Shown here piece after piece: positions 1 through 14,887 of a stretch of 23,660 nucleotides of DNA. Numbering within the stretch: the first letter of the stretch is position 1; each line of letters opens with the position of its first letter. The position numbers and the translations under genes are program-made. Location of the stretch: IMG/VR virus record IMGVR_UViG_3300015195_000004, positions 65,050 to 88,709 of that record; one strand, given 5' to 3'. The notes beneath the pieces were generated by a model. It saw only the letters and a program-made list of their open reading frames with translations, searched no databases and was not told the origin of the DNA. The DNA is from a virus.

Positions 1-133
1 GTATAAGTAAGGTGCCGGAATCTGTAATAGTATATTCTATGCCTTTATTTAATTCCCTACGTCTGATTAATCCATTTTGCAGCAATACTTTAATATGCTC
101 TTTGATTAAAGATATAATAGCAAAATTCGGCAT
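1..133 (-). CDS. Winged helix-turn-helix fragment; runs off the window; possibly the frameshifted continuation of 90..260
   Basis: Manual translation from ATG 133: MPNFAIISLIKEHIKVLLQNGLIRRRELNKGIEYTITDSGTLLI. Matches the wHTH pattern LxxxGLI...Y.IT..G. Confidence 0.5.
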   Translation of the reverse strand, partial: MPNFAIISLIKEHIKVLLQNGLIRRRELNKGIEYTITDSGTLLI

Positions 134-260
134 TTTTAGGATCAAGTCCTAAAGCTTCTATAATATAAGAGTATAGGGATTTATTAACTCCTAATGCCTC
201 GGCAGAGTGTATAGCCATAAGGGTGTTGGTGTGATTAATCTCATCATAGTTTATTGTCAT
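90..260 (-). CDS. Hypothetical protein (56 aa), possibly the N-terminal half of a wHTH protein
   Basis: ATG 260 overlaps the upstream TAA (TAATG coupling). Manual translation MTINYDEINHTNTLMAIHSAEALGVNKSLYSYIIEALGLDPKNAEFCYYIFNQRAY. Confidence 0.5.
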   Translation of the reverse strand: MTINYDEINHTNTLMAIHSAEALGVNKSLYSYIIEALGLDPKNAEFCYYIFNQRAY

Positions 261-667
261 TAAAAAAGCTCAGGATGTGTAATTATGAATTTGGCGACTA
301 CAGCATGAAGATTTCCGGCATTGACTAGCCATGAGGACTTTAAGTTATTTGCAGCATCATCACGTAAGGACTCTTCCTCTACTGTGAAGCCGTATTCTGA
401 AGGTTCGGAAGTAAATGCTGTAGGTTCGTTATTAGATACAGTACAGTGAGAATGACTAAAAGGCTTAAATATGGTGCCCCGATCTAGGGGGTTAATAGGT
501 GAGGCTAGTTCATCCTTTGTCCAATACTCTCCTGTGTTATCAAGGCCTTCCATACGAAACCATTCTCCATGATTATCTCCTGGGGGCTCCTCAATAGTGG
601 AAATTATTTGAACCGTTCCTTCATAAGGTGATTTTAGAATCTTTACTTTATCCCCTACTTTAAACAC
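260..667 (-). CDS. Hypothetical phage protein with N-terminal SH3/KOW-like motif
   Basis: ORF track 260..682. A more likely start is GTG 667, giving MFKVGDKVKI, a common phage small beta-barrel start that overlaps the upstream stop. Confidence 0.7.
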   Translation of the reverse strand: MFKVGDKVKILKSPYEGTVQIISTIEEPPGDNHGEWFRMEGLDNTGEYWTKDELASPINPLDRGTIFKPFSHSHCTVSNNEPTAFTSEPSEYGFTVEEESLRDDAANNLKSSWLVNAGNLHAVVAKFIITHPELF

Positions 668-851
668 GATACAAATCCTCATGAGATTGAAATTTCTTTT
701 TAACTGTGGTAATTGCCTCTTCTAGGTCAACTTTTAGTATGCCACCATACCCAGCATCCCAAGACTGAAGCAACCTTAATGCTCCAGCAAAAGTAGTTAA
801 ATCGGGAACAGCATTTCCACTAAATGCTCCAAAGTCTTCAGGTAGGTTCAT
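660..851 (-). CDS. Hypothetical protein (63 aa)
   Basis: ORF track 660..881. Start moved to ATG 851, which follows AAAGGGG and lies downstream of the minus-strand promoter. Confidence 0.7.
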   Translation of the reverse strand: MNLPEDFGAFSGNAVPDLTTFAGALRLLQSWDAGYGGILKVDLEEAITTVKKKFQSHEDLYRV

Positions 852-871
852 ACAGTACCCCTTTCTTATAT

Positions 872-900
872 AATATAACATAAGGAATTCAATAAGTCAA
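872..900 (-). promoter_or_regulatory. Sigma70-like promoter (leftward)
   Basis: TTGACT(900-895)-N17-TATATT(877-872), with extended -10 TG. Confidence 0.75.
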
Positions 901-943
901 GTGGGGAGATTTGTAAAGTTTTTAGAAATGTTGCCAAAACCCC

Positions 944-972
944 TTGACAGGCTATTTTGACTATGGTACATT
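944..972 (+). promoter_or_regulatory. Sigma70-like promoter driving the putative ncRNA
   Basis: TTGACA(944-949)-N17-TACATT(967-972), with extended TG. No credible + strand ORF follows. Confidence 0.75.
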
Positions 973-976
973 GCTT

Positions 977-1350
977 GGGATTCTTGTTATGTTAATACAT
1001 AGGGAAGTCTGAGAGACAAAAGTCTCATAGGTTTGCAAGGATTAGGCGAAAGACGAAACTCAGCCAGGCTCATACGGCTCACTGAGACTACCCCGGCAGC
1101 TAGGAATAAACCTAGTACCCCAAAATCCGGTCTACTTAGGTAGGTTGAGGAAGGATTAGGGAGCCTGTAATTACCCATAGAAAGATTGGGACGGGCGGGG
1201 GCAACAGGATAGGGAATTTACCGGCCCTATTCCTTAAGGGAAGGCTCTGCCCAAAATCTAAACCCTCAGCGGTCTACTGAGATGTGAATGAGGTCCGCGA
1301 TGGCCGAATTAAGTTCCTTCTAGTCCGAAGGACAGTTTCTTAAGAATCTC
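977..1350 (+). ncRNA. Putative large structured non-coding RNA (~374 nt), family unknown
   Basis: Begins at the predicted TSS. 5' GGGATTCTTG (977-986) pairs with TAAGAATCTC (1341-1350), followed by a T-rich tail. Many internal stems. Visibly more GC-rich than flanking DNA. No plausible ORF on this strand. Confidence 0.6.
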
Positions 1351-1476
1351 TTTCTGTCTTGTTTTAGGTAAGTGATTAAACATTCTTACTAGGTTTTGGT
1401 GATTTAGTGCCTCCAGATCGTTCATAGAGGTTTCTAAGGGTTCTAGTTCATCATAAGGCCAGCCAGTAGTACTCAT
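1309..1476 (-). CDS. Microprotein (55 aa)
   Basis: Manual translation MSTTGWPYDELEPLETSMNDLEALNHQNLVRMFNHLPKTRQKEILKKLSFGLEGT. ATGA overlap with the upstream ORF. Confidence 0.55.
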   Translation of the reverse strand: MSTTGWPYDELEPLETSMNDLEALNHQNLVRMFNHLPKTRQKEILKKLSFGLEGT

Positions 1477-1616
1477 TTCTTTACCTTAATCTTTCCTTTA
1501 TGTATTATTATTTTACTGCTATATGTAGTTAATGCCATCGGGGCATTATATGTAGCATATACTCCATAATTAGGTATAGGGGATACAATTGGTAAGGGTG
1601 TAGGAGGGAGCGGCAT
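1473..1616 (-). CDS. Microprotein (47 aa; Pro-rich N-terminus, basic C-terminus)
   Basis: Manual translation MPLPPTPLPIVSPIPNYGVYATYNAPMALTTYSSKIIIHKGKIKVKK. TAA-T-ATG junction upstream, ATGA overlap downstream. Confidence 0.5.
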   Translation of the reverse strand: MPLPPTPLPIVSPIPNYGVYATYNAPMALTTYSSKIIIHKGKIKVKK

Positions 1617-1617
1617 A

Positions 1618-1698
1618 TTATTTATATGTCTTTCTGATAAATGCCCGGATTTTGGCTATATAAGCATTCCATTCTGCTAGATTAGTAATCGGTTCCAT
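1618..1698 (-). CDS. Microprotein (26 aa, amphipathic helix)
   Basis: Manual translation MEPITNLAEWNAYIAKIRAFIRKTYK. TAA-T-ATG junctions on both sides. Confidence 0.5.
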   Translation of the reverse strand: MEPITNLAEWNAYIAKIRAFIRKTYK

Positions 1699-1699
1699 A

Positions 1700-1849
1700 T
1701 TACCCTACCTTATTGCCGCAGGAAGTACACCTGGCCGTGCTTGTGTCCTTGCCTGCAAGTAAGTTCCCCAGACGCCTGCCTAGTCCATATACTGTGTCCT
1801 GGTACTCATTTTTACATGAGCAGGAGATGATTTTTGTTCCTTGAGACAC
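1700..1849 (-). CDS. Small zinc-ribbon-like protein (49 aa)
   Basis: GTG start. MSQGTKIISCSCKNEYQDTVYGLGRRLGNLLAGKDTSTARCTSCGNKVG has CxC...CxxCG. First gene after promoter 1913-1941. Confidence 0.7.
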   Translation of the reverse strand: MSQGTKIISCSCKNEYQDTVYGLGRRLGNLLAGKDTSTARCTSCGNKVG

Positions 1850-1912
1850 GTTGGTTAACTCTCTTTCTGGTGGTTATTAATCCACTGTTTTCTTAGATTT
1901 AGTGTTTATCTT

Positions 1913-1941
1913 ATCTTACCTGAATAAACTATAAAAGTCAA
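1913..1941 (-). promoter_or_regulatory. Sigma70-like promoter (leftward; microprotein operon)
   Basis: TTGACT(1941-1936)-N17-TAAGAT(1918-1913). Confidence 0.65.
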
Positions 1942-1953
1942 GCAGTTCTTTGT

Positions 1954-1982
1954 TTGACAGAGTGTAAAATCTGTGATACTAT
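1954..1982 (+). promoter_or_regulatory. Sigma70-like promoter (rightward; start of the replication region)
   Basis: TTGACA(1954-1959)-N17-TACTAT(1977-1982), with extended TG. ATG at 1990 suggests a leaderless mRNA. Confidence 0.75.
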
Positions 1983-1989
1983 GAAGACT

Positions 1990-2190
1990 ATGGTTGATTC
2001 AAAAGGTAGAACAGTAGAGCAATTAAATAAGATTGCAGCATCTAAAGTAATGGCCGACACTTTGGAATTCTGGAGTCCTTTTCAGTTTCTTAGTAAGCCC
2101 TCACCTAGGCCAAAGAAGTATCCTAAAGACTTTACAAAACTATTAAATGAAGAACTTAGTGACGGAAGTTTGAATCATAATGATATTTGA
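1990..2190 (+). CDS. Hypothetical protein
   Basis: ORF track 1954..2190. The TTG at 1954 is the promoter -35 box, so ATG 1990 is preferred. Confidence 0.65.
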   Translation: MVDSKGRTVEQLNKIAASKVMADTLEFWSPFQFLSKPSPRPKKYPKDFTKLLNEELSDGSLNHNDI

Positions 2191-2416
2191 ACTTAGATTC
2201 CTACAGGGTGATGTTGATATACAGACTTTCTCCACACTAGATTTAGCTGAAAAAGAACTGCCTCTTAGGTATCTTATTAGGTCTAAGGTTATGATGCCTC
2301 TAATTGTTGAGCCGTTCCAAAAATGGACAGGTACATTTCTTTATACGAAGAAGAATGAACCTTTTGCGACAATTACTGAAGTAAAAGAAAAGATTGACAA
2401 AACCAAAAAGGTATGA
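2180..2416 (+). CDS. Hypothetical protein
   Basis: 78-aa ORF overlapping the previous gene; operon context. Confidence 0.65.
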   Translation: MIFELRFLQGDVDIQTFSTLDLAEKELPLRYLIRSKVMMPLIVEPFQKWTGTFLYTKKNEPFATITEVKEKIDKTKKV

Positions 2417-2422
2417 GATACT
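2394..2422 (+). promoter_or_regulatory. Sigma70-like promoter
   Basis: TTGACA(2394-2399)-N17-GATACT(2417-2422), with TG. Confidence 0.6.
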
Positions 2423-2453
2423 ACCCTCCACACTCGTTAAAAGGATAATTTAA

Positions 2454-2726
2454 ATGATCATTAAAACCGAAAATGCTTCGCATAAACATGTGAAAAGTAT
2501 CACTCTTCAGGACCTTGTAGATTATGCTTATGAACAAAAACTTGATCCTAGAGATGTACACATAATGTACCAAAGTACGGCCCACGAATCACGAACTTTT
2601 TTTGAGCCTTCACATGTGGACATAGTTTCTTCAACAAATAAGCATCATACGATGTATATTAATTGTTCTGATAGAATGATACTGCGAAAAAATGCTGGTC
2701 GTCCTTTAATTGGAGTTAAGTGGTAG
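2454..2726 (+). CDS. Hypothetical protein
   Basis: 90-aa ORF preceded by SD-like AAAGGA. Confidence 0.7.
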   Translation: MIIKTENASHKHVKSITLQDLVDYAYEQKLDPRDVHIMYQSTAHESRTFFEPSHVDIVSSTNKHHTMYINCSDRMILRKNAGRPLIGVKW

Positions 2727-2921
2727 ATGATGTTAAAAAAAGGCGATTTAGTTAAGTTCCATCATGATTCACCCCTTAGAGGGTTCTTTGGGAATGAAAA
2801 TTCAGCCTTTAAAGTTATGTATGCAGAAGATGAGATAGTTTGTATAAATACTATTGATCCTGATACGTTAAGAGGACAGTATAGAGAACTTCCTGCAAAT
2901 AATTTTCTGAAAGTTGTGTAG
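2727..2921 (+). CDS. Hypothetical small SH3/KOW-like protein
   Basis: Starts LKKGDLVKF; abuts the previous stop (TAG-ATG). Confidence 0.7.
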   Translation: MMLKKGDLVKFHHDSPLRGFFGNENSAFKVMYAEDEIVCINTIDPDTLRGQYRELPANNFLKVV

Positions 2922-3071
2922 ATGAAGCCTACAAATTATTTGCATAAAGATTGGCTTGTGTTAAGTCGTGCGTGTTATGATTTTATTAAACAGGTAACTA
3001 AAATATACCACGCACGAAACTGGGCTGATGGGCTAGTAACCAGACTAAATCTAACGATTATAGATGATTAG
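2922..3071 (+). CDS. Hypothetical protein (49 aa)
   Basis: Not in the ORF track. MKPTNYLHKDWLVLSRACYDFIKQVTKIYHARNWADGLVTRLNLTIIDD; TAG-ATG junction, fills the gap before the HNH gene. Confidence 0.55.
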   Translation: MKPTNYLHKDWLVLSRACYDFIKQVTKIYHARNWADGLVTRLNLTIIDD

Positions 3072-3083
3072 GATATACAATAA

Positions 3084-3557
3084 ATGAATGTCCGTTCTCC
3101 CGAAGAAAGGTTCTGGGAAAAGGTAAATATTCCTGATGACAGGAATCTTTGTTGGCTCTGGACAGCGTGTGTAAATCCTGCTGGATATGGAGTTTTTGCA
3201 TTAAGTAGGACCAAGCAAACAATTGCTAGTCGATATTCTTATTTATTAAATACAGGCTCAATTCCTAAAGATATGTTTATATTACATAAATGTGATAATC
3301 CTCCATGCGTAAACCCAGAACACCTGTTCGTGGGTACTCAAAAAGACAATATGATGGATAAGGTTAATAAAGGAAGAGGCACTAAAGGAGAACAAGTTGG
3401 CTCTTCTAAACTGTTAGAAAAGGAAGTTTTAGAAATAAAAAATAGTTTTAAGGATAATCCTGTATTCGGGGCTCAAATAAAATTAGCCAGGACGTATAAA
3501 GTAGACGTTAAGACAATCCAAAGAATACTAACTAACCAGATATGGAAGCATGTGTAA
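3084..3557 (+). CDS. HNH homing endonuclease (HNH_3 type) with C-terminal HTH
   Basis: RFWEKV...CWLWT...GYG...LHKCDNPPCVNPEHLFVGTQKDN; C-terminal KLARTYKVDVKTIQRI...WKHV. Confidence 0.92.
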   Translation: MNVRSPEERFWEKVNIPDDRNLCWLWTACVNPAGYGVFALSRTKQTIASRYSYLLNTGSIPKDMFILHKCDNPPCVNPEHLFVGTQKDNMMDKVNKGRGTKGEQVGSSKLLEKEVLEIKNSFKDNPVFGAQIKLARTYKVDVKTIQRILTNQIWKHV

Positions 3558-5429
3558 GTGATGAATGTAAGAAGTAGTTTAATATCTTGGGGATTAATTC
3601 CTGCCCACCAGACCCCAAACTCTTCAGGAGAATTCATCCTGCAGTGTCCCGAATGTAAGCATGATCCGGCAAAGTGCTTCGTTAACGGCGGAGGAAAAGG
3701 AATTTCCTGTAAGCACTGCTCTTACAGCCCTTCATGGAGGAAATTTGCATTAAGGTATCAGCCCCCAAGCAAAGAAGACGAAGCATTAGAAACATTTGTT
3801 AAGGCGTGTGAAGAGAGATTGCTTCAAGATCACGAACTTATTGCATACTTAACAGAACGAGGGCTTACCAAAGATACTATTAAATCACAACGCTTAGGTT
3901 ATTGCGACCCTAGGATGTATAAAGCTTCTGAGATTGATGTTAAGGTTCATTTGGCTTACGAAGATTCGTTCTCTTGGGAACTAGAGAATAGGATCACAAT
4001 TCCATACACAGAAGATTCAATAGTTCTCACAGTCAGAGGAAAATCATATCCTGATCTTGAGGCAAAGCCCAAATATAAATCCCTTAAGGGCAGCAAATCC
4101 TTACCTTATATTCCTTCAAAACTTGATACTGATTTACCAGTTATACTTGTTGAAGGGGAACTTGATTCTATCATTCTTCGTCAAAACGGGATACAAGCTA
4201 TAGGCATTCCTGGAGCAGGGAACTTTAAACCTGACTGGACCTCTCATCTGAAGCATTTATATATTGCCTTTGACGGCGACGAAGCGGGCCAAAAGGGTGC
4301 AGACAAAGTAATTAAGCAGATTCTTGAGATTCGCCGCATTGATCTTCCTGAAGGTTACGATGTTGGAGAGTATATCTCTACATTCGGAGTAGAGTCTTTT
4401 AAATCACTAATTGATAAATCCGTTTTTTACCTTCAAGGTAAACCGCAGACTGATGACAAACTCTCTTCTTTAGTTGATGCATTCTTGGATTGGGCTTGGA
4501 GCAACCACGGCACAATCGGTCCTAAAATCCTATGGGCTCCGAGGCTTAATGAGGTATTTTCCGGTTGGTCTCCTGGGCTGTACCTATTAGGTGCAAGAGA
4601 ATCATTTGGGAAGACTAAGCTTTTAACTAAAGCTATTTATGCAGCAGCAGCAGAGAATCCAGAAGACACAATAGCAGTCTATGTTTCTCTAGATGACCCT
4701 CTTCACTCATCATTAGCAGGATTCATTGCCCTTCATACCCAAATAGATATTAATGATGTTAGAAGTCCTAGGAATAAACTAGAACATGACACTATTAAAC
4801 TAGCAAATTACCTAGAATTTGTTGAGACCTTTAAACACATGAAGAACCTTATTGTACGGGATGGCTCACATGGAAAAAGGATTAGCACATTAAAGTACTT
4901 CTTAAAATCCCTTAGGGCAAAGTACCCAGACAAGAAAATCGTCTGTGCAGTAGATAGTTTATCCAAATTAGTCCCAGATAGGGAGAAGGATGAGCAGCAT
5001 TTTGATGCCGCCTCTATGGGGAATGTAAAGGCTTACCTTGCCACTTCCGTTAAGGATATGGCAGTCAGGTACGAAATAGCTCTAATCTCTCCCACAGACC
5101 TCAGAAAGACCCTTCCTGGCGTACCTCCTACTATTGCCGACCTATCAGGCGCAGCAGAGTTAGGTTATGAGGCTGATGTAGTGATGATCCTGGATAATGA
5201 AATGCAGACGGTAGGCAGTACAAGCAAGCTAACCTGGATGGATGAAGAGAATGGGAATAAACTAGAGCCTATTATTGAACTTAGGGTTCCGAAGAATAAG
5301 ATAACCGGGTCAGACAGGCAACATCTAATGTTTAAACTACTTTCTAGGCAATCTGATTTACAGGAACTAAGTCTAGAAGAGCAGCGTTATTATGAATCAT
5401 TAAAATATAGTAGTGAAAACTCTCATTAA
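3558..5429 (+). CDS. DNA primase-helicase (Zn finger + TOPRIM + DnaB-like SF4 helicase)
   Basis: CPEC...CKHC; YLTERGL; VEGELD; AFDGDEAG; Walker A GARESFGKT; Walker B AVDSL; DLSGAAELGYEADVV; KNK. Confidence 0.92.
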   Translation: MMNVRSSLISWGLIPAHQTPNSSGEFILQCPECKHDPAKCFVNGGGKGISCKHCSYSPSWRKFALRYQPPSKEDEALETFVKACEERLLQDHELIAYLTERGLTKDTIKSQRLGYCDPRMYKASEIDVKVHLAYEDSFSWELENRITIPYTEDSIVLTVRGKSYPDLEAKPKYKSLKGSKSLPYIPSKLDTDLPVILVEGELDSIILRQNGIQAIGIPGAGNFKPDWTSHLKHLYIAFDGDEAGQKGADKVIKQILEIRRIDLPEGYDVGEYISTFGVESFKSLIDKSVFYLQGKPQTDDKLSSLVDAFLDWAWSNHGTIGPKILWAPRLNEVFSGWSPGLYLLGARESFGKTKLLTKAIYAAAAENPEDTIAVYVSLDDPLHSSLAGFIALHTQIDINDVRSPRNKLEHDTIKLANYLEFVETFKHMKNLIVRDGSHGKRISTLKYFLKSLRAKYPDKKIVCAVDSLSKLVPDREKDEQHFDAASMGNVKAYLATSVKDMAVRYEIALISPTDLRKTLPGVPPTIADLSGAAELGYEADVVMILDNEMQTVGSTSKLTWMDEENGNKLEPIIELRVPKNKITGSDRQHLMFKLLSRQSDLQELSLEEQRYYESLKYSSENSH

Positions 5430-5433
5430 GGTG

Positions 5434-5462
5434 TTGACAACCTCTTTAGAATGTGATAGTAT
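5434..5462 (+). promoter_or_regulatory. Sigma70-like promoter
   Basis: TTGACA(5434-5439)-N17-TAGTAT(5457-5462), with TG. ATG at 5472. Confidence 0.75.
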
Positions 5463-5471
5463 AGTAAGACT

Positions 5472-5630
5472 ATGAACGATTTTACTGTTGAAACCTCTGA
5501 TATTGGTACTTACTTAAAGTTTTCAGATGAAGCTATAGTTAAAACAAAGTCAGTTGAAACCCCTGCTCCTGTACAAATTAATGTAGATTATGATAATTTT
5601 GGCAATTTGGTAGGAATTGAGATTGTTTAA
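5472..5630 (+). CDS. DUF2283-like small protein (52 aa)
   Basis: Not in the ORF track. MNDFTVETSDIGTYLKFSDEAIVKTKSVETPAPVQINVDYDNFGNLVGIEIV; the YLKF...VDYD..GNLVGIEI pattern fits DUF2283. Confidence 0.75.
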   Translation: MNDFTVETSDIGTYLKFSDEAIVKTKSVETPAPVQINVDYDNFGNLVGIEIV

Positions 5631-5704
5631 TGAGTAAAGGTCAAATATTTCTAGTAGCGTTTTCTTTAGGTATATTAACTGCCTTATTCTGTGTGTCTTT
5701 ATGA
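5630..5704 (+). CDS. Hydrophobic micropeptide (24 aa, single TM)
   Basis: MSKGQIFLVAFSLGILTALFCVSL; TAATG overlap upstream and ATGA overlap downstream. Confidence 0.5.
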   Translation: MSKGQIFLVAFSLGILTALFCVSL

Positions 5705-7674
5705 GTGATAAGATATATTATTCAGTAAGTACGCTTCGCCAAATGTCTGTCTGCCCTGCCCGCGTGTTTTTTAAAGGGCTTGCAAAAAAGGGTTTAATTA
5801 AAACAGACCCCTCTTTACCATTTATTTTTGGCATTGCTGCTCATGAAGGAGTAGAGGCCCTTCTTAAAAATGGTGAATCTTCTAAAGTTGTGGCAAACAA
5901 GTATGTTAAAGATAATCTTCTTGACAAATACACAGTTAAGAACCTACAAGAAGTAGACATTAGTACAGAAGATATTCAGGGAAAACAGGCCCATTTAGAT
6001 AAGTGCCTTGACAACTTTGAGAATAAGATAATGCCGCGCCTAGTAGAAGCAAACCCAAGCATGGATTGGGCTGATAGGGTAGAAGTTAGGTACGAGGCAC
6101 CTTATCGTAACGGGGTTATGGTAGGCGTGATTGACCTTGATATGGATCATTCTGTCATGGACTGGAAAGGTCTAGCACTAGACACCCCAATTCCAACTGT
6201 AACCGGATGGAAGAATATGAAGGAATTGCAAGTCGGAGATGAGATATTCGGAAGTAATGGGCACCCTTGTTTGGTAACAGCTAAATCTGAAATCCACAGC
6301 AAAAAATGCTATAAAATTACTTTTGATGATAAAACATCTATTATTTGTGATTCAGACCATAAATGGGTTACCTATAACAACATAACCAAGCTCGGAAATC
6401 AGGACCACACAAAATTCCGACGCAATAAAAGAACACTAACTACAGAAGAGATAAAAGACACCCTATTAGATTCAAAAGGTAAACATCACCACAGAATACT
6501 TAATCCGGGACCACTTGTTTTGTCGGATAAACAATTGTCAATTGACCCGTATGTACTAGGGTTATGGCTAGGTGATGGTAGTTCTAGAGATAGCAGAATC
6601 TGTAGTGCAGACCCAGAAATTTTTGATATTATAAAATCTAAGGGTTATGCTTTGGGTATCCCAGAAATAAAAACAAACGAAAAAACTGGAGTAGTTACAG
6701 AAGTTATATCTATAATAGGGCTACAAGCCGACCTTATGTCGTTTAATCTGTTAGACAATAAGCATATTCCAAACGAATACTTGAGAGGTTCATATAATCA
6801 GAGATTAGAACTACTTCAAGGATTAATGGATTCTGATGGGACATATAACCAAGTAAGGTCACAAGCTGTATTTTGTAACAATAATGCAAATTTAGCTTAC
6901 GGCGTACTAGAACTAGTTTTAAGCTTGGGCAGTAAAGGCAGAGTTTTCCATGTAAATAAACATGGTTTTGGGCTTACAATAGAATCGTGTGATACTGCAT
7001 TTACTCCTGTAGGATTTAATCCATTTAAATTGTCTCGGAAAAAAGAACTAGTTAAGGTTCAGACTATGAAAACAGGAAACTGTGCTATGTCATTCAGGCG
7101 TCTGATTATGAAAATAGAAGAAATAGCTTCTGTAGAAACTCAGTGTATTATGGTGGATTCAGAAGACAGCACTTATCTTTGTGGGCAACAAATGGTACCT
7201 ACTCATAATAGCGGCAAGGCTATACCTTATATGTCTAGTCTAATGATTGACCCGCAGCCTCCCACATACCACTTCCTAAAGACCCAAACCCAAGGCTCTG
7301 CTCCCTCTAGGTTCTCTTTTGTTTACTTAATTGGTAAACCTACAAGACAGATACAGGATGGAGTCTATAAAAGCGGTCCTCGTAAAGGCCAGCCCAAAAT
7401 GGCATTAGATTATGAGAACGGCCTACAGTTTAAGTTTGATGTTCTACAGGATGAAGCTAAAGTAGCTAAGATGTTCAATGATTATATTGATCCTTGGGCC
7501 GAGATGTATGAAGCAGGCATTATATATAAAAACCCAGGTTATAATGGAATGAACTGTAAGGGTTGCAGCTATCGCACCGCTTGCCAAAAAGAAGATTATC
7601 AACTACCCAAGAGGCCAGACCTGGCAACAAAAGACCCTAACGGAATAGACGTAGACCTACTAGGAGGAGAATAG
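5701..7674 (+). CDS. PD-(D/E)XK nuclease (Cas4/RecB/AddB-like), intein-containing
   Basis: N-terminal SVSTL...CP; FGIAAH; VEV...GVIDL...DWK|SGK; C-terminal CKGCSYRTAC completes a 1+3 Cys Fe-S staple. Predicted spliced product is 310 aa. Confidence 0.88.
   Translation: MSDKIYYSVSTLRQMSVCPARVFFKGLAKKGLIKTDPSLPFIFGIAAHEGVEALLKNGESSKVVANKYVKDNLLDKYTVKNLQEVDISTEDIQGKQAHLDKCLDNFENKIMPRLVEANPSMDWADRVEVRYEAPYRNGVMVGVIDLDMDHSVMDWKGLALDTPIPTVTGWKNMKELQVGDEIFGSNGHPCLVTAKSEIHSKKCYKITFDDKTSIICDSDHKWVTYNNITKLGNQDHTKFRRNKRTLTTEEIKDTLLDSKGKHHHRILNPGPLVLSDKQLSIDPYVLGLWLGDGSSRDSRICSADPEIFDIIKSKGYALGIPEIKTNEKTGVVTEVISIIGLQADLMSFNLLDNKHIPNEYLRGSYNQRLELLQGLMDSDGTYNQVRSQAVFCNNNANLAYGVLELVLSLGSKGRVFHVNKHGFGLTIESCDTAFTPVGFNPFKLSRKKELVKVQTMKTGNCAMSFRRLIMKIEEIASVETQCIMVDSEDSTYLCGQQMVPTHNSGKAIPYMSSLMIDPQPPTYHFLKTQTQGSAPSRFSFVYLIGKPTRQIQDGVYKSGPRKGQPKMALDYENGLQFKFDVLQDEAKVAKMFNDYIDPWAEMYEAGIIYKNPGYNGMNCKGCSYRTACQKEDYQLPKRPDLATKDPNGIDVDLLGGE
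6169..7209 (+). mobile_element. Intein (347 aa) with LAGLIDADG homing endonuclease, class 3-type
   Basis: Block A GLALDTPIPTVTGWKNMKELQVGD; block B CDSDHKW; LAGLIDADG motifs LGLWLGDGS and LQGLMDSDG; block F TQCIMVD; block G VPTHN followed by +1 Ser. Confidence 0.92.
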
Positions 7675-7677
7675 TAT

Positions 7678-7890
7678 ATGAATAGTGCAGCATTTAGTGA
7701 TTATTCGAGAGCTAAGGCAATGAGGGAAGTTAAGGCCCTTAAACTGCTCCAGTTATTTGAATCTAATAAACTTATTCACATAATTGAGGACAACCTGGAA
7801 ACAGAAAATACTTGGGATGGCCACATTCCTGTAATTAACAAAATTTGTTTTACAAAAGACATTGAAGATTATCTTAAGGATACAGACTAG
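7678..7890 (+). CDS. Hypothetical protein
   Basis: 70-aa ORF with GGAG upstream; operon context. Confidence 0.65.
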   Translation: MNSAAFSDYSRAKAMREVKALKLLQLFESNKLIHIIEDNLETENTWDGHIPVINKICFTKDIEDYLKDTD

Positions 7891-7891
7891 A

Positions 7892-8245
7892 ATGCTATCC
7901 AGGGGGGAAGAGTTGTTATTAACTATCCTTGGATTACAGTTCCCACATTATACTATAATCCCACAGAAAACGATTAAAGTAGGATACAAATCCCTCTACC
8001 TAGACTATTACATCCCACAGTTAAAGATGGCATTTGAATTCGACGGGCAACAGCATTTTCAGTTTATTTCCTTCTTTCACAAAACGCTGAAAGGCTTCCA
8101 AAATAGTCTTAAAAGAGATTCTATGAAGGATAAGTACTGCCGAGAAAATGGCATTACACTTGTGCATATACCGGACAATGGTAAACTAACCCTAGAAAAA
8201 GTAAGGAATATTATATCAAAAATACCAATATACGAAAGTGAGTAA
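7892..8245 (+). CDS. DUF559/Vsr-like restriction-endonuclease-fold protein
   Basis: SRGEELL...YLDYYIP...AFEFDGQQH...RDSMKDKYCRENGITLVHI. Start moved to ATG 7892, just after the previous TAG. Confidence 0.85.
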   Translation: MLSRGEELLLTILGLQFPHYTIIPQKTIKVGYKSLYLDYYIPQLKMAFEFDGQQHFQFISFFHKTLKGFQNSLKRDSMKDKYCRENGITLVHIPDNGKLTLEKVRNIISKIPIYESE

Positions 8246-8251
8246 AACACA

Positions 8252-8938
8252 ATGAATAAACTACTCTCGCTAATGTCTTTAATTAGCATAATTACCCTCG
8301 GATTTATGAACCCAGCATCGGCTGCTTATCAATATGAGTCCTGGTCCGGTTTTACCGCAGGAACAATTTTTTTAGACGGACATATCTACGGTAATTGGAA
8401 AGATCAATTTAATGGAGGCGGCACTACGGAGGTATTTAATCCGGGTACACTTATCACCACTAAGTGTCTATCGGAGTGGCCTGCATATGTTTACGGTTCT
8501 ACCCGGTCAACTATGGTAACATCTACTACAGCCTTTAGTTCTAATAATTTCTATGCATATTCTACGTTTGTAACTTTGTCCCAGAACAGACCTAGCCCAA
8601 ATAGCTGGGAAATGGGATGGTTTGTGTGGGACTATACAGATAATGCCCATTTTTATAATGTAATTCTAAGAACTGATGGATGGGAACTGGACAAAGAGGA
8701 CCCGGCGTATCCAGGTAATCAGCGATTTCTTACCTCAGGTTTTAGTCCGACGTTTGCATTAGATAGTGTAAATACAATAAGTGTTACACAAAGCTCTAAT
8801 GTTATTACAGTGAACGTGAATGGTAATTACTTAACTAGCTATACCGATATGCAAAGACCATACTATGGTGGAAAAATCGGACTATATGATGAAGATTCTC
8901 ATGTAGCCTGGGGAGTAACTGCTGCAAGCTCTAACTAG
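8252..8938 (+). CDS. Secreted ConA-like lectin/glucanase (beta-sandwich) domain protein
   Basis: Sec signal peptide ending ASA-A. Aromatic/Ser/Thr-rich beta protein with ITVNVNG and GKIGLYDED. Paralogous to the C-terminal domain of 8999..10594. Confidence 0.7.
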   Translation: MNKLLSLMSLISIITLGFMNPASAAYQYESWSGFTAGTIFLDGHIYGNWKDQFNGGGTTEVFNPGTLITTKCLSEWPAYVYGSTRSTMVTSTTAFSSNNFYAYSTFVTLSQNRPSPNSWEMGWFVWDYTDNAHFYNVILRTDGWELDKEDPAYPGNQRFLTSGFSPTFALDSVNTISVTQSSNVITVNVNGNYLTSYTDMQRPYYGGKIGLYDEDSHVAWGVTAASSN

Positions 8939-8963
8939 AAGCAAGCAAGGCCTAATTTGACTG

Positions 8964-8992
8964 GTGACAAACCAAGAGAGAAAGGGTAGACT
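8964..8992 (+). promoter_or_regulatory. Putative leaderless promoter of the lipoprotein gene
   Basis: GTGACA(8964-8969)-N17-TAGACT(8987-8992)-N6-ATG(8999). Confidence 0.5.
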
Positions 8993-8998
8993 AGAAAA

Positions 8999-10594
8999 AT
9001 GAAAAATACACTAAAACTAGCTACCCTTATATTAGGGGTAGTACTTATATCCTGTGGTGGAAAATCCATCACCCCTACCCCTCCTAATAGTATTAATAAA
9101 ACCGCCTCATTTATCCCTCCGTCTTGGATATGGGGTGTAACTACAGATAATGTAGTGAATAACACATTGTCACAAACCACAGCACTTTCATCATTCTCAA
9201 AAAGAACAATGATTAGAACTGTGTTTGACCAGCCCAAAAATGGATCACCTGTAGCATCAGATTATTTAGCTTCAGTTACATCAGTTTCTGCAGTTTCAGA
9301 CATTTTAGGCCTATTGATTGATTCTAGTGACATGCCTAATTCAAGTCTTTCTTATGTACAATCTAGAGTTTCGTCCTATTTATCTGCACTAGGAAGTAAA
9401 GTTGCAGTATGGGAAGTCGGCAATGAAATTAATGGTAATTGGCTTGGGTCAGGAGTTATTCCAAAAGTAGAAGCTATGTATGATGCAGTAAAAGCTGCTG
9501 GAAAGCCTGCAGCAATTACCTTTTACTATGAAAACCCGATAACCCCAGGATATGATATGTTACCCTGGATTGATGCTAATATTCCTGCAGGTAATCGTAT
9601 GCGAACAGGACTTGATTACGCATTTGTAAGTTATTATGAAGACCAAAACGGTGGCCATCAGCTTACGCAAACCGAACTAAATACAATATTCTCTGGGTTA
9701 CACGCTAGATTCCCTAATGCTAAACTTGGATTTGGTGAATGTGGTTATGGTGGGACAATTCCACCAGCAGGAAGTGGAGATGTCACCAGGGCAGCACTAC
9801 TTAATAGATTCTATGGATATAGAGTCCCTACAGTCCCGGCATTTATAGGAGGTAATTTTTACTGGAACTGGAATTACACCTCTGTACCAAAAAGCAAGCC
9901 TGATTGGACAGTCCTTAATACTCAGTTCCAAAATAACCCAGCCCCCTCACCTACTCCTACTGTAGCACCAACTGCGACACCCACAGTAGTTCCTACATCT
10001 ACACCATCAGCATCTCCTACTGGAACCCCTTGGATTGATGGGCAAACATATGGTCCTTGGTATGACCAATATGGGGGATATGGAGTAATCCAAACAGTAG
10101 GAGCAAATATATCACTAACTCCGCGTTATACTGCTGGTAGTACAGAAGCAAGTCTAATAACTACTTCAGCAGCCTTCGGGGACTTTACTGCACAAACCAC
10201 AATGACAACTGTATCACAGAACAGACAGCCTAATCCTAATGCGTGGGAAGCTGCTTGGTTCCTGTGGCACTACACAGACGATAACCACTTCTATTCACTA
10301 GTTCTTCATACTGATGGTTCAGGATGGGAATTAGGAAAAGAAGACCCAGCATATCCAGGATCACAACGATTCCTAGCAACACCAACAACTCCCAGTTTCC
10401 CAATGGGAAGCCCTTATACAGTCAAAGTAATTCAGTCAGGTGCGACAATGTCTATATATGTCAACGGGGCATTCTTAATCACTTATGTAGATACAGAACG
10501 CCCATACTACTCTGGAAAAATTGGTCTTTACACAGAAGATGCCCACGTAGTATTCACACCACTTACCATAAATAATCTAACCCTATCTTGGTAA
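8999..10594 (+). CDS. Lipoprotein: glycoside hydrolase clan-A-like TIM barrel + Pro/Thr linker + ConA-like domain
   Basis: Lipobox LISC (Cys19). WEVGNEING is the candidate acid/base, FGECG the candidate nucleophile, plus GGNFYW. PT linker, then a C-terminal beta-sandwich. Confidence 0.75.
   Translation: MKNTLKLATLILGVVLISCGGKSITPTPPNSINKTASFIPPSWIWGVTTDNVVNNTLSQTTALSSFSKRTMIRTVFDQPKNGSPVASDYLASVTSVSAVSDILGLLIDSSDMPNSSLSYVQSRVSSYLSALGSKVAVWEVGNEINGNWLGSGVIPKVEAMYDAVKAAGKPAAITFYYENPITPGYDMLPWIDANIPAGNRMRTGLDYAFVSYYEDQNGGHQLTQTELNTIFSGLHARFPNAKLGFGECGYGGTIPPAGSGDVTRAALLNRFYGYRVPTVPAFIGGNFYWNWNYTSVPKSKPDWTVLNTQFQNNPAPSPTPTVAPTATPTVVPTSTPSASPTGTPWIDGQTYGPWYDQYGGYGVIQTVGANISLTPRYTAGSTEASLITTSAAFGDFTAQTTMTTVSQNRQPNPNAWEAAWFLWHYTDDNHFYSLVLHTDGSGWELGKEDPAYPGSQRFLATPTTPSFPMGSPYTVKVIQSGATMSIYVNGAFLITYVDTERPYYSGKIGLYTEDAHVVFTPLTINNLTLSW
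9938..10030 (+). repeat. Pro/Thr-rich low-complexity linker
   Basis: Encodes PAPSPTPTVAPTATPTVVPTSTPSASPTGTP. Confidence 0.8.
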
Positions 10595-10606
10595 AATAAG
10601 TCCGAT

Positions 10607-10634
10607 GGGCTGTATCTAAACAATACGGCCCTTT
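10607..10634 (+). terminator. Stem-loop, possible intrinsic terminator
   Basis: GGGCTGTAT-ctaaaca-ATACGGCCC (9 bp with one G-U), followed by only TTT; lies 12 nt after the lipoprotein stop. Confidence 0.5.
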
Positions 10635-10655
10635 AGGATCAGAAAGAAGAAAACA

Positions 10656-11303
10656 TTGATTAATTTATTTCTAGCAGTATTATTATTTATAACCCCACAA
10701 CAAGAAGTTCGTTCTTCTTCACATAGTATAGTCAAAGTTAATCGAAACACTGATACTATTTGTACAGGGTTTATTATTAACACCCCCGGCACTGTTAATA
10801 CATATGTGATGACTGCCAAACACTGTAGAGACCCTATCACAAAAACTGACACAGGACTTCCTACGGCTATTATACAGCAAAATGGACACATTTCATTTGT
10901 GAATAATGTATTTAGCTCAGAATCACAAGATATTATGTTACTAGAAATAGATAAATTGCCTCTAAATGGATTTATATTATCTTCAGATAGAATGCAACCT
11001 GGTGGTCAATATTACACAATTAGCCACCCTATTAATTATGAGTATATCTATTCACCTATTATTGGCTCTAGTGTGTTTAAGGAGTCTATAAAGACAGAAT
11101 ACCGTTCGGTAGATGTTGGCTATGATAATGTAATAATTTGCCCAGGATGCGCCGAAGGTACTTCAGGTGCTCCTATTATATCAGATGGAAAGGTATTTGG
11201 TATTCTATTGGCGAAGTCTACCAGTATTCCGTCGGTCTTATTCTCTACCTCAAGTATTAACATATTAAGATTTATGACCGCATTGAAAGGTATTATACAT
11301 TAA
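10656..11303 (+). CDS. Exported trypsin-like (S1) serine protease
   Basis: Hydrophobic N-terminus; CTGF; TAKHC (His); DIMLL (Asp); GTSGAP (Ser). Confidence 0.88.
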   Translation: MINLFLAVLLFITPQQEVRSSSHSIVKVNRNTDTICTGFIINTPGTVNTYVMTAKHCRDPITKTDTGLPTAIIQQNGHISFVNNVFSSESQDIMLLEIDKLPLNGFILSSDRMQPGGQYYTISHPINYEYIYSPIIGSSVFKESIKTEYRSVDVGYDNVIICPGCAEGTSGAPIISDGKVFGILLAKSTSIPSVLFSTSSINILRFMTALKGIIH

Positions 11304-12425
11304 GTGGCAAAGCCTAAAAAAGAAAAATCAACAGAACCTGCAATTACAGATAAAGCAGCAGCCTTTAATATTCTGCAACTAAAACACAAAGGCATTGGGA
11401 AGAAGCAAGAGGTACATGCAGTAATGCCTTCGGAATGCCTCCAGTCCCCATCTGCTCAGTGGAATATTATGACTAATGACGGAGGGTTCCGTCCAGGTAG
11501 TATTATTGAACTGTACGGGCACTTTGGCACTTTAAAAACTACATTAAGTCTTGAATTGTGTCGGATTGCCCAACAGTGGAAACCGGACCTTTCTGTGGCC
11601 TACTATGACCCTGAGCAAAGCGTTGACCTGTATGTTGCAGAGACAGATATGGGAATTGATAGGTTGCAGTTTGATGACGGAAGGCCTCGCTTTGATTACT
11701 GGCCGGGACACGAAGACGGAATCCCCACGCTAGAGGAGATTCTAGATCGTATTTATGATGTTGCAGCAAGCGGCATCTATTCCTTTATTGTTCTAGACTC
11801 AGTAGCTGCATGCATGACTCTTTGGGAGAAAGAATCCGAGAGCGTTTCCGATGCTAAGTGGGGAGGTCCTAGCATCCTCATGAGCAAAGCTATGAAGAGA
11901 ATTAAATCTGTTTGTGCCAAAACCGGCACCATTCTCTTATGTGTTAATCAACTTAGGACTAAGACTATAATGACCCCACAAGGTCAGAAATCAGTTGAGG
12001 AACCAGGAAGCGGCTTTGCTCTACGATATGCTGCAAGCCACAGATTCAAGCTCTCTTGGGCCAAGAAGGATGCAGAAGGAGACGATTCCTGCTTAAGGAT
12101 TCAGGCTGATAAAGTGAAGTATGGTCGGTCCTGGGGTGTAGTGGAAATTCCAATTACACTTGGCAAAGGAATTAATCAAGAAGCAGATTTAGTTATTGCC
12201 GCCGAGGCTCAAGGAGTTATAACCAAAAAGGGCTCATGGTACACATTCCAAGAAGAGATGATCGGCCAGGGCATTAGTAAGGTAGCTGCTAATCTGAAAA
12301 GTATGCCACAGATGGCAGATTTAATAAAAGAAATGACATATAAGGAAGCCCTAAGTAAACTCCCCTTGACAAGCAGTAACGAAGGTGATAATCTGTCTAT
12401 AGAATCAGAAGTTGAGGATAATTAA
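11304..12425 (+). CDS. recA: RecA/UvsX-like recombinase
   Basis: GGFRPGSIIELYGHFGTLKTT; DPEQ; IVLDSVAA; NQLR; GFALRYAAS; GVITKKGSWY; IGQG. Confidence 0.9.
   Translation: MAKPKKEKSTEPAITDKAAAFNILQLKHKGIGKKQEVHAVMPSECLQSPSAQWNIMTNDGGFRPGSIIELYGHFGTLKTTLSLELCRIAQQWKPDLSVAYYDPEQSVDLYVAETDMGIDRLQFDDGRPRFDYWPGHEDGIPTLEEILDRIYDVAASGIYSFIVLDSVAACMTLWEKESESVSDAKWGGPSILMSKAMKRIKSVCAKTGTILLCVNQLRTKTIMTPQGQKSVEEPGSGFALRYAASHRFKLSWAKKDAEGDDSCLRIQADKVKYGRSWGVVEIPITLGKGINQEADLVIAAEAQGVITKKGSWYTFQEEMIGQGISKVAANLKSMPQMADLIKEMTYKEALSKLPLTSSNEGDNLSIESEVEDN
12366..12394 (+). promoter_or_regulatory. Sigma70-like promoter inside the recA 3' end
   Basis: TTGACA(12366-12371)-N17-TAATCT(12389-12394), with TG. Confidence 0.55.
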
Positions 12426-12659
12426 ATGACTGAACACATTACCTTAAAAATACTTAATTCGTCTCTATTACAAACATTTGGCGATATTAATAATACTGCC
12501 ATTGAACTTAATAAAACAGTTAGGTATTTAAGTGTTAATGGTTCAGATTATACTTGCGGCACTTTGACTGTAACTGGATTAGGACTACTGCCTATAAATA
12601 TAGATGTAGTTAAAGATGAAACGGTTCCAATAGGCTTTGTTAAGGTAATATTTAACTAA
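12426..12659 (+). CDS. Hypothetical protein
   Basis: 77-aa ORF; TAA-ATG junction; GAGGA upstream. Confidence 0.65.
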   Translation: MTEHITLKILNSSLLQTFGDINNTAIELNKTVRYLSVNGSDYTCGTLTVTGLGLLPINIDVVKDETVPIGFVKVIFN

Positions 12660-13045
12660 TGAGGAATCTAGATTACCCTGAATATGTCGTCAAGTTTATT
12701 CTAGAATCTTGGGACGATGTTCAAGAACTTAGATTGAAGTTAACTACTACAATGACTACTGTCGATTATATCTATCCAAAGGCCGAATGGTTTCTACAAG
12801 AGGGTAATACACTCACAAAGAGAGAGCCGCAAAATTCTAGGATTCCTCATAATTCTAACAACTTAATCGAAAACCTGTGTGTTATGTTATGCGACATTGA
12901 ACAAGCACAGAGGAGAATGTTAACAAAAGCAGAAGAAATATCACTAATGGCGGTCTGTACTTTCAAGGACCGGGAGTTTACTCCAGAAATTAAAGAAACG
13001 GCAGCTATTGCACTCAATAAAATGGTGCAGTACTTAAACAGATAA
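12659..13045 (+). CDS. Hypothetical protein (weak resemblance to phage sigma region-4-like/activator proteins)
   Basis: 128-aa coupled ORF; C-terminal DIEQAQRRMLT..E...ALNKMVQYLN. Confidence 0.6.
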   Translation: MRNLDYPEYVVKFILESWDDVQELRLKLTTTMTTVDYIYPKAEWFLQEGNTLTKREPQNSRIPHNSNNLIENLCVMLCDIEQAQRRMLTKAEEISLMAVCTFKDREFTPEIKETAAIALNKMVQYLNR

Positions 13046-13692
13046 TGATTATTATACCACGAACTGATTATATAGAATACACAAACTCAGGGCGTTCTTT
13101 AAGTAAAGAATTCTACTGCCTGTCTTTAAAGAAGAAGTTTGAAGTAATTGCCCAAATGGAGTTGGAGGAGTTGATTCCTAGAGACTATAAGCTTCTAGAT
13201 AAACTAATTTTGGCAGTACTTCAGCACAGCCCTAAGTCTTCTATTAAGGATCATCCTGTGAATAAGGAACGTAAGATTAGGCCTGAAGCTAAGGCGGCAG
13301 ACCTTAATGAACTAAACCTAAATATACAATTAGCTATGGATGAAGAAATTAATACACACGAAGACGCGGTTGATTTGCGAATAAACAATGTATTAATACA
13401 GCGTAGAGCTAAAAAAGCAGAAGATGTACTTAATAAAGACTGGTCTGAAGAAGTTACATATACACAAGAACAGATTGATGTTCTTAAAGGTACTGAATGC
13501 ACCAGGAAACGCCCTATAGATGACAGAGGGTTTAGTATAGCTGAAGGTTCAGTATTCAATCACTGCCAAACTTATGAAGAATTAATGTCTCAGGCTGGAG
13601 CAATACTTACCCGTCCTGAAATGTATTTCGGCACTAAAGATAGTTATGAAGATGAACCAGATTATGTAAAAGCTAAGGAAATACTTAATTAA
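13045..13692 (+). CDS. Hypothetical protein
   Basis: 215-aa ORF with TAATG coupling at both ends. Confidence 0.75.
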   Translation: MIIIPRTDYIEYTNSGRSLSKEFYCLSLKKKFEVIAQMELEELIPRDYKLLDKLILAVLQHSPKSSIKDHPVNKERKIRPEAKAADLNELNLNIQLAMDEEINTHEDAVDLRINNVLIQRRAKKAEDVLNKDWSEEVTYTQEQIDVLKGTECTRKRPIDDRGFSIAEGSVFNHCQTYEELMSQAGAILTRPEMYFGTKDSYEDEPDYVKAKEILN

Positions 13693-14468
13693 TGTCAGTT
13701 GCAACTACCAGTAACTATAAGATACTCTTTTATGACATCGAAACGTCTCCTAACCTTGGATGGATTTGGGGTAAGTGGGAACAAAACGCAATGGGGTTTG
13801 AATCTGAATGGTACATCCTATCCTTCAGTTACAAGTTCGCAGGCGAGAAGAAGATACACACCTACTCCCTTCCTGACTTCAAAGGCTATGATAAGGACCC
13901 AGAGAATGACAAAGAGATTTGTGCGAAGTTATGGGAGATTATGGATAGTGCTGATCTAGTTGTAGGGCACAATTCTGATAATTTTGACAATAAAAAAGCT
14001 AGTGCGCGATTCTTCTTCCACAACTTCCCACCGCCGTCTCCTTACAAAACTGTGGATACCTTAAAGATTGCTAGGCGACACTTTGCATTTACATCAAATA
14101 AGCTAACTGACTTGTGCCAACATTTAGGTATCGGGAAAAAGGTAAAGACTGGCGGATTCGATCTTTGGCTTGGATGTATAAACGGCGATGCTAAATCTTG
14201 GGCATTGATGCGTAAGTATAACGCTATGGATATAACCCTTCTAGAAGGGCTCTATGAACGGCTTAAGTGTTGGGCCACTAATCACCCCAATATCAACTTG
14301 CAGGCATCTAAGGACCACCAGTGCCCCGTCTGTGCCTCTACTAAAACTGTCCGCAGAGGATGGAGTAACCTCATATCCTATAGGGCAGAAAGATGGAGAT
14401 GCTCAGATTGTGGGAAATGGTCCCAGGGCAAGCGGGAAAAAATTAAATCCCAGTTGTTGAAAGCATAA
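13692..14468 (+). CDS. DEDD/RNase H-like 3'-5' exonuclease (RNase_H_2 type) with C-terminal Zn ribbon
   Basis: FYDIET; GHNSDNFD; DTLK; YNAMD; CPVC...CSDCG. Confidence 0.88.
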   Translation: MSVATTSNYKILFYDIETSPNLGWIWGKWEQNAMGFESEWYILSFSYKFAGEKKIHTYSLPDFKGYDKDPENDKEICAKLWEIMDSADLVVGHNSDNFDNKKASARFFFHNFPPPSPYKTVDTLKIARRHFAFTSNKLTDLCQHLGIGKKVKTGGFDLWLGCINGDAKSWALMRKYNAMDITLLEGLYERLKCWATNHPNINLQASKDHQCPVCASTKTVRRGWSNLISYRAERWRCSDCGKWSQGKREKIKSQLLKA

Positions 14469-14470
14469 TA

Positions 14471-14653
14471 ATGTTCTTTAATACAGACTTCACTAATCAC
14501 CTCTGTTATATGTGTCAGCAAACCTGTAATGTCTCTGATTCACGAGAACTGCATATAGCAGATAAGCAGTTGGAATTTCATTCTTCCTGCTTGGACCTGT
14601 ATATAAGCCTAATGAGGATAGGTCTTGTAGACAAAGAAAAGCCTCAGACTTAG
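14471..14653 (+). CDS. Small Zn-finger-like protein
   Basis: CYMC...FHSSC. Confidence 0.6.
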   Translation: MFFNTDFTNHLCYMCQQTCNVSDSRELHIADKQLEFHSSCLDLYISLMRIGLVDKEKPQT

Positions 14654-14682
14654 TTGACAAACCCACAGAAATATAGCATAAT
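14654..14682 (+). promoter_or_regulatory. Sigma70-like promoter
   Basis: TTGACA(14654-14659)-N17-CATAAT(14677-14682). Confidence 0.7.
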
Positions 14683-14692
14683 AGAGGATAAT

Positions 14693-14887
14693 ATGAATAA
14701 AGAAACAATTCAGATTTTGTTACCTGCTACAGTAGCACCATTAATCGAAGAAACGGGCATGGGTTTCGTTAAATTTTCAATAACAGAATCATATAAAGTA
14801 GATAATGAGGCAACGGCTAGTTGTTTAGAAAGAGTTGCCGAATTCCTAAGAGCTTCTAAAAATACGAATGGAGAACCAGTAACTTGA
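14693..14887 (+). CDS. Hypothetical protein
   Basis: The ORF track start at 14654 is the -35 TTG; ATG 14693 follows GAGGA. Confidence 0.65.
   Translation: MNKETIQILLPATVAPLIEETGMGFVKFSITESYKVDNEATASCLERVAEFLRASKNTNGEPVT

Follow-up and report, generated by a model that had tools for sequence, protein, structure and literature searches.

A predicted promoter-driven non-coding RNA with an internal duplication between divergent operons of a phage genome

At the meeting point of a leftward block of small genes and a rightward replication block, a phage genome appears to encode a non-coding RNA in which a ~115-base unit is present in two diverged versions. A dedicated promoter, a raised GC content, a repeat that is not random and similar units in related phages make a stand-alone non-coding transcript without an Rfam match the likely product of this locus. 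The duplication is solid and a fold common to both copies is plausible, judging from the modelled structures; that the product is a functional folded RNA we consider moderately probable. An earlier note on this DNA had drawn positions 977-1350 as one 374-nt fold with a pseudoknot, which the present analysis does not support, and the duplication is absent from that note.

The window, i.e. the whole stretch of DNA analysed here (23,660 nucleotides), lies at the end of a virus record of 88.7 kb (IMGVR_UViG_3300015195_000004), of which it makes up 23.7 kb. As the last 120 bases of the record are repeated near its start, the genome is probably whole and circular. Among its products are a primase-helicase, a family A polymerase, a RecA-like protein, a thymidylate synthase, a ribonucleotide reductase, a terminase and a member of the integrase family; neither a tRNA nor a tmRNA gene was found in it. 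Cultured phages are remote, their primases and polymerases being 22-30% identical among the matches listed. The window also contains, at 5701-7674, a gene for a Cas4-like exonuclease with what appears to be an intein (residues about 156-504); the insert is missing from the homologs in two relatives described below (L033 and L034). At 8252-10594 it encodes two secreted-looking proteins with a common glycoside-hydrolase-like C-terminal domain, which appear to be accessory because one contig of sequencing run X1 skips 8240-10645.

Promoter and extent of the predicted transcript

The features of the locus are as follows, in window coordinates.

872-900, minus strand: divergent promoter of the left small-gene operon
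944-972, plus strand: sigma-70-type promoter with an extended -10 TG (TTGACA-17-TG-TACATT, 10 of 12 consensus bases)
979-1365, plus strand: predicted non-coding transcript (a sequence-based prediction, with an uncertain 3' end at 1335-1365)
977-986, plus strand: 5' arm of the closing helix, pairing with 1341-1350 (predicted pair probability 0.6-0.96)
988-1001, plus strand: 5-bp hairpin
1002-1036, plus strand: long interrupted hairpin (z -3.3, 0/200 shuffles, picked after viewing)
1037-1150, plus strand: module A, with head word 1037-1046, word 1119-1127 and tail word 1128-1139
1059-1086, followed by AC, and 1099-1116, plus strand: hairpins of module A
1151-1293, plus strand: module B, with head word 1151-1160, word 1250-1258 and tail word 1270-1281
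1174-1190, followed by AC, and 1193-1252, plus strand: hairpin and long stem of module B, the latter enclosing a hairpin at 1208-1231
1264-1282, minus strand: weak terminator-like site of the convergent operon (3 such sites found, 2.2 expected)
1309-1476, minus strand: conserved hydrophilic 55-aa ORF, whose last 14 codons overlap the proposed RNA
1315-1332, plus strand: hairpin across the 1318/1319 junction, where contigs of close relatives leave the RNA sequence
1913-1941, minus strand: promoter of the convergent small-gene operon (49-aa, 47-aa and 55-aa ORFs)

The near-consensus promoter on which the earlier note based its transcript is indeed present at 944-972. No other of the genome's 22 strict promoters lies as far from a same-strand ORF (1008 nt), and 18 of the 22 have such an ORF within 100 nt; no same-strand gene flanks or covers 977-1318. 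In seven of these promoters, genome-wide, a start codon is found at the seventh or eighth base past the -10 box, which suggests that many mRNAs of this phage are leaderless and may give a hint at the host group. These apparently leaderless genes make 979-980 a more likely 5' end for the RNA than the 977 predicted earlier. Transcription by the host polymerase, from 979 to about 1335-1365 and early in infection, is in our view very probable. A search of sequencing runs listed none that contains the RNA.

The region is also richer in GC than its flanks, as had been noted, with 48.5% at 977-1318 compared to 36% at 601-976 and 37% at 1319-1500. A value this high is reached by 49 of 1768 genome windows, the overlapping windows of the locus itself included, and thus belongs to the top 3%.

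The overlapping 55-aa gene and the junction at 1319

Although described as ORF-free, the region includes at its right-hand end part of the minus-strand 55-aa ORF (1476-1309), which is conserved in two other sequences, is preceded by a purine-rich site and covers the final 42 bases of the RNA (1309-1350). Codons therefore make up the 3' arm of the closing stem, the loop of the last hairpin and the greater part of that hairpin. Both other sequences of the 55-aa protein are two residues shorter at the end. A protein atlas gave no usable match to this ORF, and a viral-contig match (L001) was discarded as false. A 63-aa minus-strand ORF at 987-1178 encodes a hydrophobic stretch; it has neither a ribosome-binding site nor a PHROG match and was treated as a probable shadow frame. 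A 13-nt stretch at 1387-1399, on the same strand within the 55-aa ORF, is complementary to 10-mers of both modules (1108-1117 and 1251-1260), possibly by chance.

Close relatives were found in two DNA runs of one study, with contigs 85-99% like the window that fill 23 and 24 of 30 bins over bases 1-15000. Two contigs of run X1 match the window from 1319 rightwards, one over 193 nt with 3 differences and the other over 33 nt with 1, and carry unlike sequence leftwards of this point (median 255 letters). Their consensus has a stop codon where P0001, one of the other sequences of the 55-aa protein, ends. Since these relatives keep the ORF and differ to the left of 1319, the body of the RNA looks like a variable cassette that meets the last codons of the ORF, the evidence being two low-depth contigs of a single run. 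With other sequence in this slot in two close relatives, the RNA is not kept across strains. Bases 694-1304 were without cover in three DNA runs; at their depth of 2-5 such a hole proves nothing, and the loose ends at 1319 alone were used.

The arrangement of the two convergent transcripts raises the question of a cis-acting role, in which the plus-strand transcript would damp the convergent operon by duplex formation or polymerase collision, folds and repeats being secondary. The promoters at 944 (plus) and 1941 (minus) are head to head, and the predicted transcript would share some 40-110 bases with the operon's 3' end, from the minus-strand terminator-like site at 1282-1264 to about 1365. 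A convergent antisense RNA over the 3' end of a small gene is the geometry of type I toxin-antitoxin systems, and RatA/txpA, SR4/bsrG and SR5/bsrE, with 3'-end overlaps of 114-123 nt (PMC8464778), offer a precedent that resembles this locus in its predicted convergent transcription and its 3' overlap with a gene of about 55 codons. In contrast to type I toxins, however, the 55-aa protein is hydrophilic and has no hydrophobic or transmembrane segment (best 19-residue hydropathy -0.40), so that a type I membrane toxin was rejected. The RNA is also larger than such antitoxins, most of it, including both head words, lies outside the overlap, and the two X1 contigs retain the ORF beside other sequence. 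We regard antisense action or transcription interference as unlikely to be the main role of the locus.

Folding and internal duplication

All ten pairings named in the earlier note were found at the positions given there. The description of the molecule as highly structured did not hold: the 374 nt of 977-1350 have a minimum free energy of -118.2 and a z-score of -1.40, with 8 of 100 shuffles equally stable, and the comparison with shuffles that the note had itself proposed thus goes against the molecule as a whole. For 977-1318 alone the z-score is -0.44, the best 120-nt window within it reaching -2.0, and the hairpin at 1002-1036 is the only locally significant fold of the RNA. The 10-bp closing helix is present as a pairing, but its 3' arm lies in codons of another gene, and shuffling the downstream sequence gave a helix of at least 10 bp with the 5' end in 26 of 300 cases. 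Likewise, the stems CTCAG/CTGAG (1059-1086) and GTTGAGG/CCTCAGC (1144-1150/1264-1270) match in their bases but are hardly populated in the predicted ensemble (probabilities of 0.05 and about 0). The pseudoknot proposed between the last loop and 1086-1090 is at chance level, a 5-mer complement of the loop occurring in 62% of shuffles. Both the closing stem and the last hairpin take some of their bases from the adjacent gene; they are probably incidental, or of recent origin.

The 6-mer CUGAGA, which we take to be a T-loop-type word, is found three times in the RNA (window 1009, 1082 and 1277). GGA motifs are not enriched in the manner of CsrB (12 observed, 11.5 expected), and a search for trans targets within the phage genome gave a longest match of 15 nt, in the same sense as the mRNA.

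The RNA contains two diverged copies of the ~115-base unit, A at 1037-1150 and B at 1151-1293. Both contain the same three exact words in the same order, one of 10 nt (1037 and 1151), one of 9 nt (1119 and 1250) and another of 9 nt that extends to 11 matches out of 12 (1128 and 1270). This ordered chain was reached by none of 3000 shuffles and by no other among 884 genome windows. By local alignment, A and B are not significantly similar (168 of 2000 shuffles score as well) and Tandem Repeats Finder found nothing; the preservation of exact words amid sequence that cannot be aligned suggests selection on the motifs.

Folded separately, the two modules adopt an identical centroid layout: the first two words pair to form a closing helix, and this is accompanied by a hairpin with AC after it and by an interrupted stem, capped by a hairpin that has AAU at the start of its loop. 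When 18 pairs were aligned by eye between A and B, 2 changed on both sides, 1 changed on one side and 1 was broken. The two-hairpin layout was not found in 3000 shuffles of the interior of module B, a count that is inflated because the descriptor was defined after viewing. The module energies are no better than those of shuffles (z -0.9 and -0.2), and in the full-length ensemble the probability of the module-closing helices is close to 0.

The repeated words could also be sites of an initiator protein in the DNA, or the G-rich tract at 1188-1202 could prime replication through an R-loop, which would make the locus an element of a replication origin. Its place, flanked by divergent operons and with the primase-helicase gene 2.2 kb downstream, and the adjacent AT-rich stretch at 891-976 fit such a role. 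Yet an origin would be expected to be conserved in close relatives, of which two contigs differ here; the cumulative GC-skew minimum lies about 11 kb away, at genome position 54868; and three different words spaced 114-142 nt apart are not iterons. An origin element is thus a very unlikely explanation in our estimate.

Known RNA families and units in related phages

The covariance models of Rfam 15, including GOLLD, ROOL, OLE, tmRNA, SRP, 6S, introns and ribozymes, gave no match in the window at the gathering threshold, and only chance matches were seen at E-values up to 10 (best 13.2 bits). No likeness to E. coli 16S, 23S or 5S rRNA or tmRNA exceeded that of shuffles. A tmRNA was also sought through a tRNA-like domain with T arm and CCA and through a tag frame, and was rejected. 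No domain of an RNA partner was detected among 89 proteins with Pfam or among 30 with PHROGs.

RNase P RNA was considered because of a length of about 375 nt, paired ends, a few look-alike words and, by eye, a multi-hairpin junction like that of the S domain. Aligned globally to E. coli rnpB, the RNA outscored each of 300 shuffles; the score against 16 RNase P RNAs was nevertheless matched by 39 of 640 GC-matched control windows, and is thus ordinary among natural sequences. An HMM of 79 RNase P RNAs had no match at the locus, regions CR-I to CR-V were not detected by the profile, and the 5' word lacks a P4 partner near the 3' end. A covariance model of our own for the S domain, run with filters off, gave 7.1 bits (E 0.18) and ranked 966-1109 second in the window. 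RF00010, RF00011, RF00373 and RF00028 did not match the locus.

Two consensus words for P7, the helix with a bulged A, of group I introns occur in order at 1084-1090 and 1321-1326, as they do in 1.1% of shuffles, but the 3' word lies in codons of the 55-aa ORF, about 230 nt from its partner. The P3-P9 core of RF00028 was negative and no same-strand gene is interrupted. A group II intron, permuted forms included, was rejected, the domain 5 match covering the upper hairpin only (E 5.3) and no GUGYG being found by eye. The P7-like words, the rnpB alignment and the rank of the S-domain match could be traces of a degenerate or permuted ribozyme, a relic of RNase P, group I or group II; given the control windows, the negative Rfam and HMM profiles, the codons under the 3' word and the poor domain 5 match, we consider such a relic most unlikely.

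GOLLD and ROOL, large RNAs of phages and prophages (PMC12286853), are likewise phage-borne, stand-alone and ORF-free RNAs of several hundred bases without an assigned function. The RNA studied here is shorter than these (659 nt for ROOL and more than 800 nt for GOLLD in that paper), has no Rfam match, belongs to a genome without tRNA genes and folds unexceptionally.

The earlier note had proposed to collect homologs, and none was found in any collection searched. In cultured phages, blastn gave no true homolog and a single 35-nt match (E 0.5); plasmids and the complete records of three related phages were also negative. Four RNA patterns matched 0, 3, 26 and 76 loci in viral contigs, all of which were judged to be chance by reading and by nhmmer, and one pattern matched 119 loci in 53 of 64 parts of the metagenome contigs, none confirmed by nhmmer. 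Exact patterns miss diverged copies, so these searches indicate rarity and not absence. The primase alone, against viral contigs, and a primase alignment, against GTDB genomes and metagenomes, yielded no relative. The literature searched contained nothing describing the 977-1350 RNA; in three files from the supplements of PMC10690425, a study of 10,006 candidate viral RNAs, two of the repeated words were absent in both DNA and RNA spelling. A new class would need homologs and covariation, and as none was found this part of the earlier proposal, like the ribozyme, is unsupported; what stands of the proposal is the likely stand-alone RNA.

An alignment of the primase identified three relatives (41-50% identical). 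Two of the three have promoter-driven ORF-free units between divergent operons upstream of the primase gene: three units in L033 (z -2.3, -4.2 and -4.8) and two in L034 (z -2.1 and -1.0), L032 having short leaders only at the junction. None of 10 units from relatives could be aligned to the 977-1350 RNA (p 0.10-0.95). These units raise the prior for real RNAs in this slot and are no evidence for the 977-1350 fold.

The L033 units (7156-7312, 7342-7700 and 7737-7960) lie back to back, two of them strongly folded and all without an Rfam match, and are better candidates for new RNAs than the one studied here. L033 also carries, at 18152-18251 with its own promoter at 18019, a 100-nt RNA that resembles the tRNA-like domain of tmRNA without the message part, with a G3-U70 acceptor pair, presumably the alanine identity pair, a tmRNA-type T loop, a CCA end and a single long stem where that part would be. 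The alpha_tmRNA model scored it below threshold (E 0.07). It could be a decoy of SmpB or of alanyl-tRNA synthetase, and its presence indicates that mimic-like RNAs occur in this phage clade. Compared by eye, L034 4049-4097 and L033 7535-7585 (approximate) have short words in common around what may be an H-type pseudoknot, the stems of which differ. A viral scan with this shared pattern gave 17 loci, of which 15 could not be aligned to those two or to the 977-1350 RNA, and no third member was found. In L156 (15152-15480), a promoter is directly followed by a tRNA (38 bits) whose anticodon loop is enlarged, and then by about 250 nt of ORF-free, hairpin-rich sequence. The genome studied here has a second promoter-driven non-coding unit of ~200 nt (L036, genome positions 44560-44785, minus strand), which ends in ACCA, has a folding z-score of +0.3 and has one 11-mer in common with the 5' hairpin of the 977-1350 RNA and another with L034 3627.

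Folding at shuffle level and the lack of homologs would also be expected of a decaying or functionless cassette, i.e. an insert with its own promoter, an ancient duplication and stems due to chance, which a variable slot would tolerate. The junction within the last codons of the ORF, of which the two other protein sequences end two residues earlier, points in the same direction. Against this, the exact words are preserved amid unalignable sequence, the strong promoter is intact and has no other purpose, and a relative has strongly folded units at the equivalent junction. We hold decay to be as unlikely as antisense action.

The reading that fits best, given short exact words in two copies, partly unpaired, within a strain-variable cassette, is a non-coding RNA of 340-390 bases with a duplicated protein-binding domain that serves as a two-site decoy of a host protein; no host target was found, and we put this full reading forward tentatively, at somewhat less than an even chance. 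RNA anti-CRISPRs are reportedly phage non-coding RNAs for which a decoy role has been proposed. The analogy used here is pseudo-ToxI of phage PhiTE, a phage decoy RNA that gains unit copies (PMC3475682), which the present RNA resembles in being a phage non-coding RNA with a proposed decoy role and a gain of repeat units; its own units differ from those of pseudo-ToxI in that they are ~115-140 nt long, diverged and without a match in any Rfam family.

The steps that we infer for the two-site decoy, namely transcription, a common fold, protein binding and the decoy role, would run as follows. Host RNA polymerase would make the RNA early from the promoter at 944-972, and its two diverged copies would fold alike, each with a closing helix, a hairpin, AC, a second stem with a distal hairpin and an A-rich linker. 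Each copy would then bind a host RNA-binding protein, and the turnover of an arms race would exchange the cassette between strains. A wider proposal, which we regard as distinctly unlikely, is that the clade maintains an RNA island between its divergent operons, with fast-swapping folded RNAs that mimic those of the host, and that the present locus founds a new family in which a duplicated four-way junction binds a host defence or RNA-processing protein at two sites and neutralises it.

If the RNA is merely an antisense transcript or a decaying cassette, the locus is an ordinary one. As a natural two-copy domain, the RNA provides a built-in test of which bases matter. RNA-based counter-defence of phages is known from few cases, and if this clade does swap several promoter-driven folded RNAs at one site, that site would be a place to find more of them.
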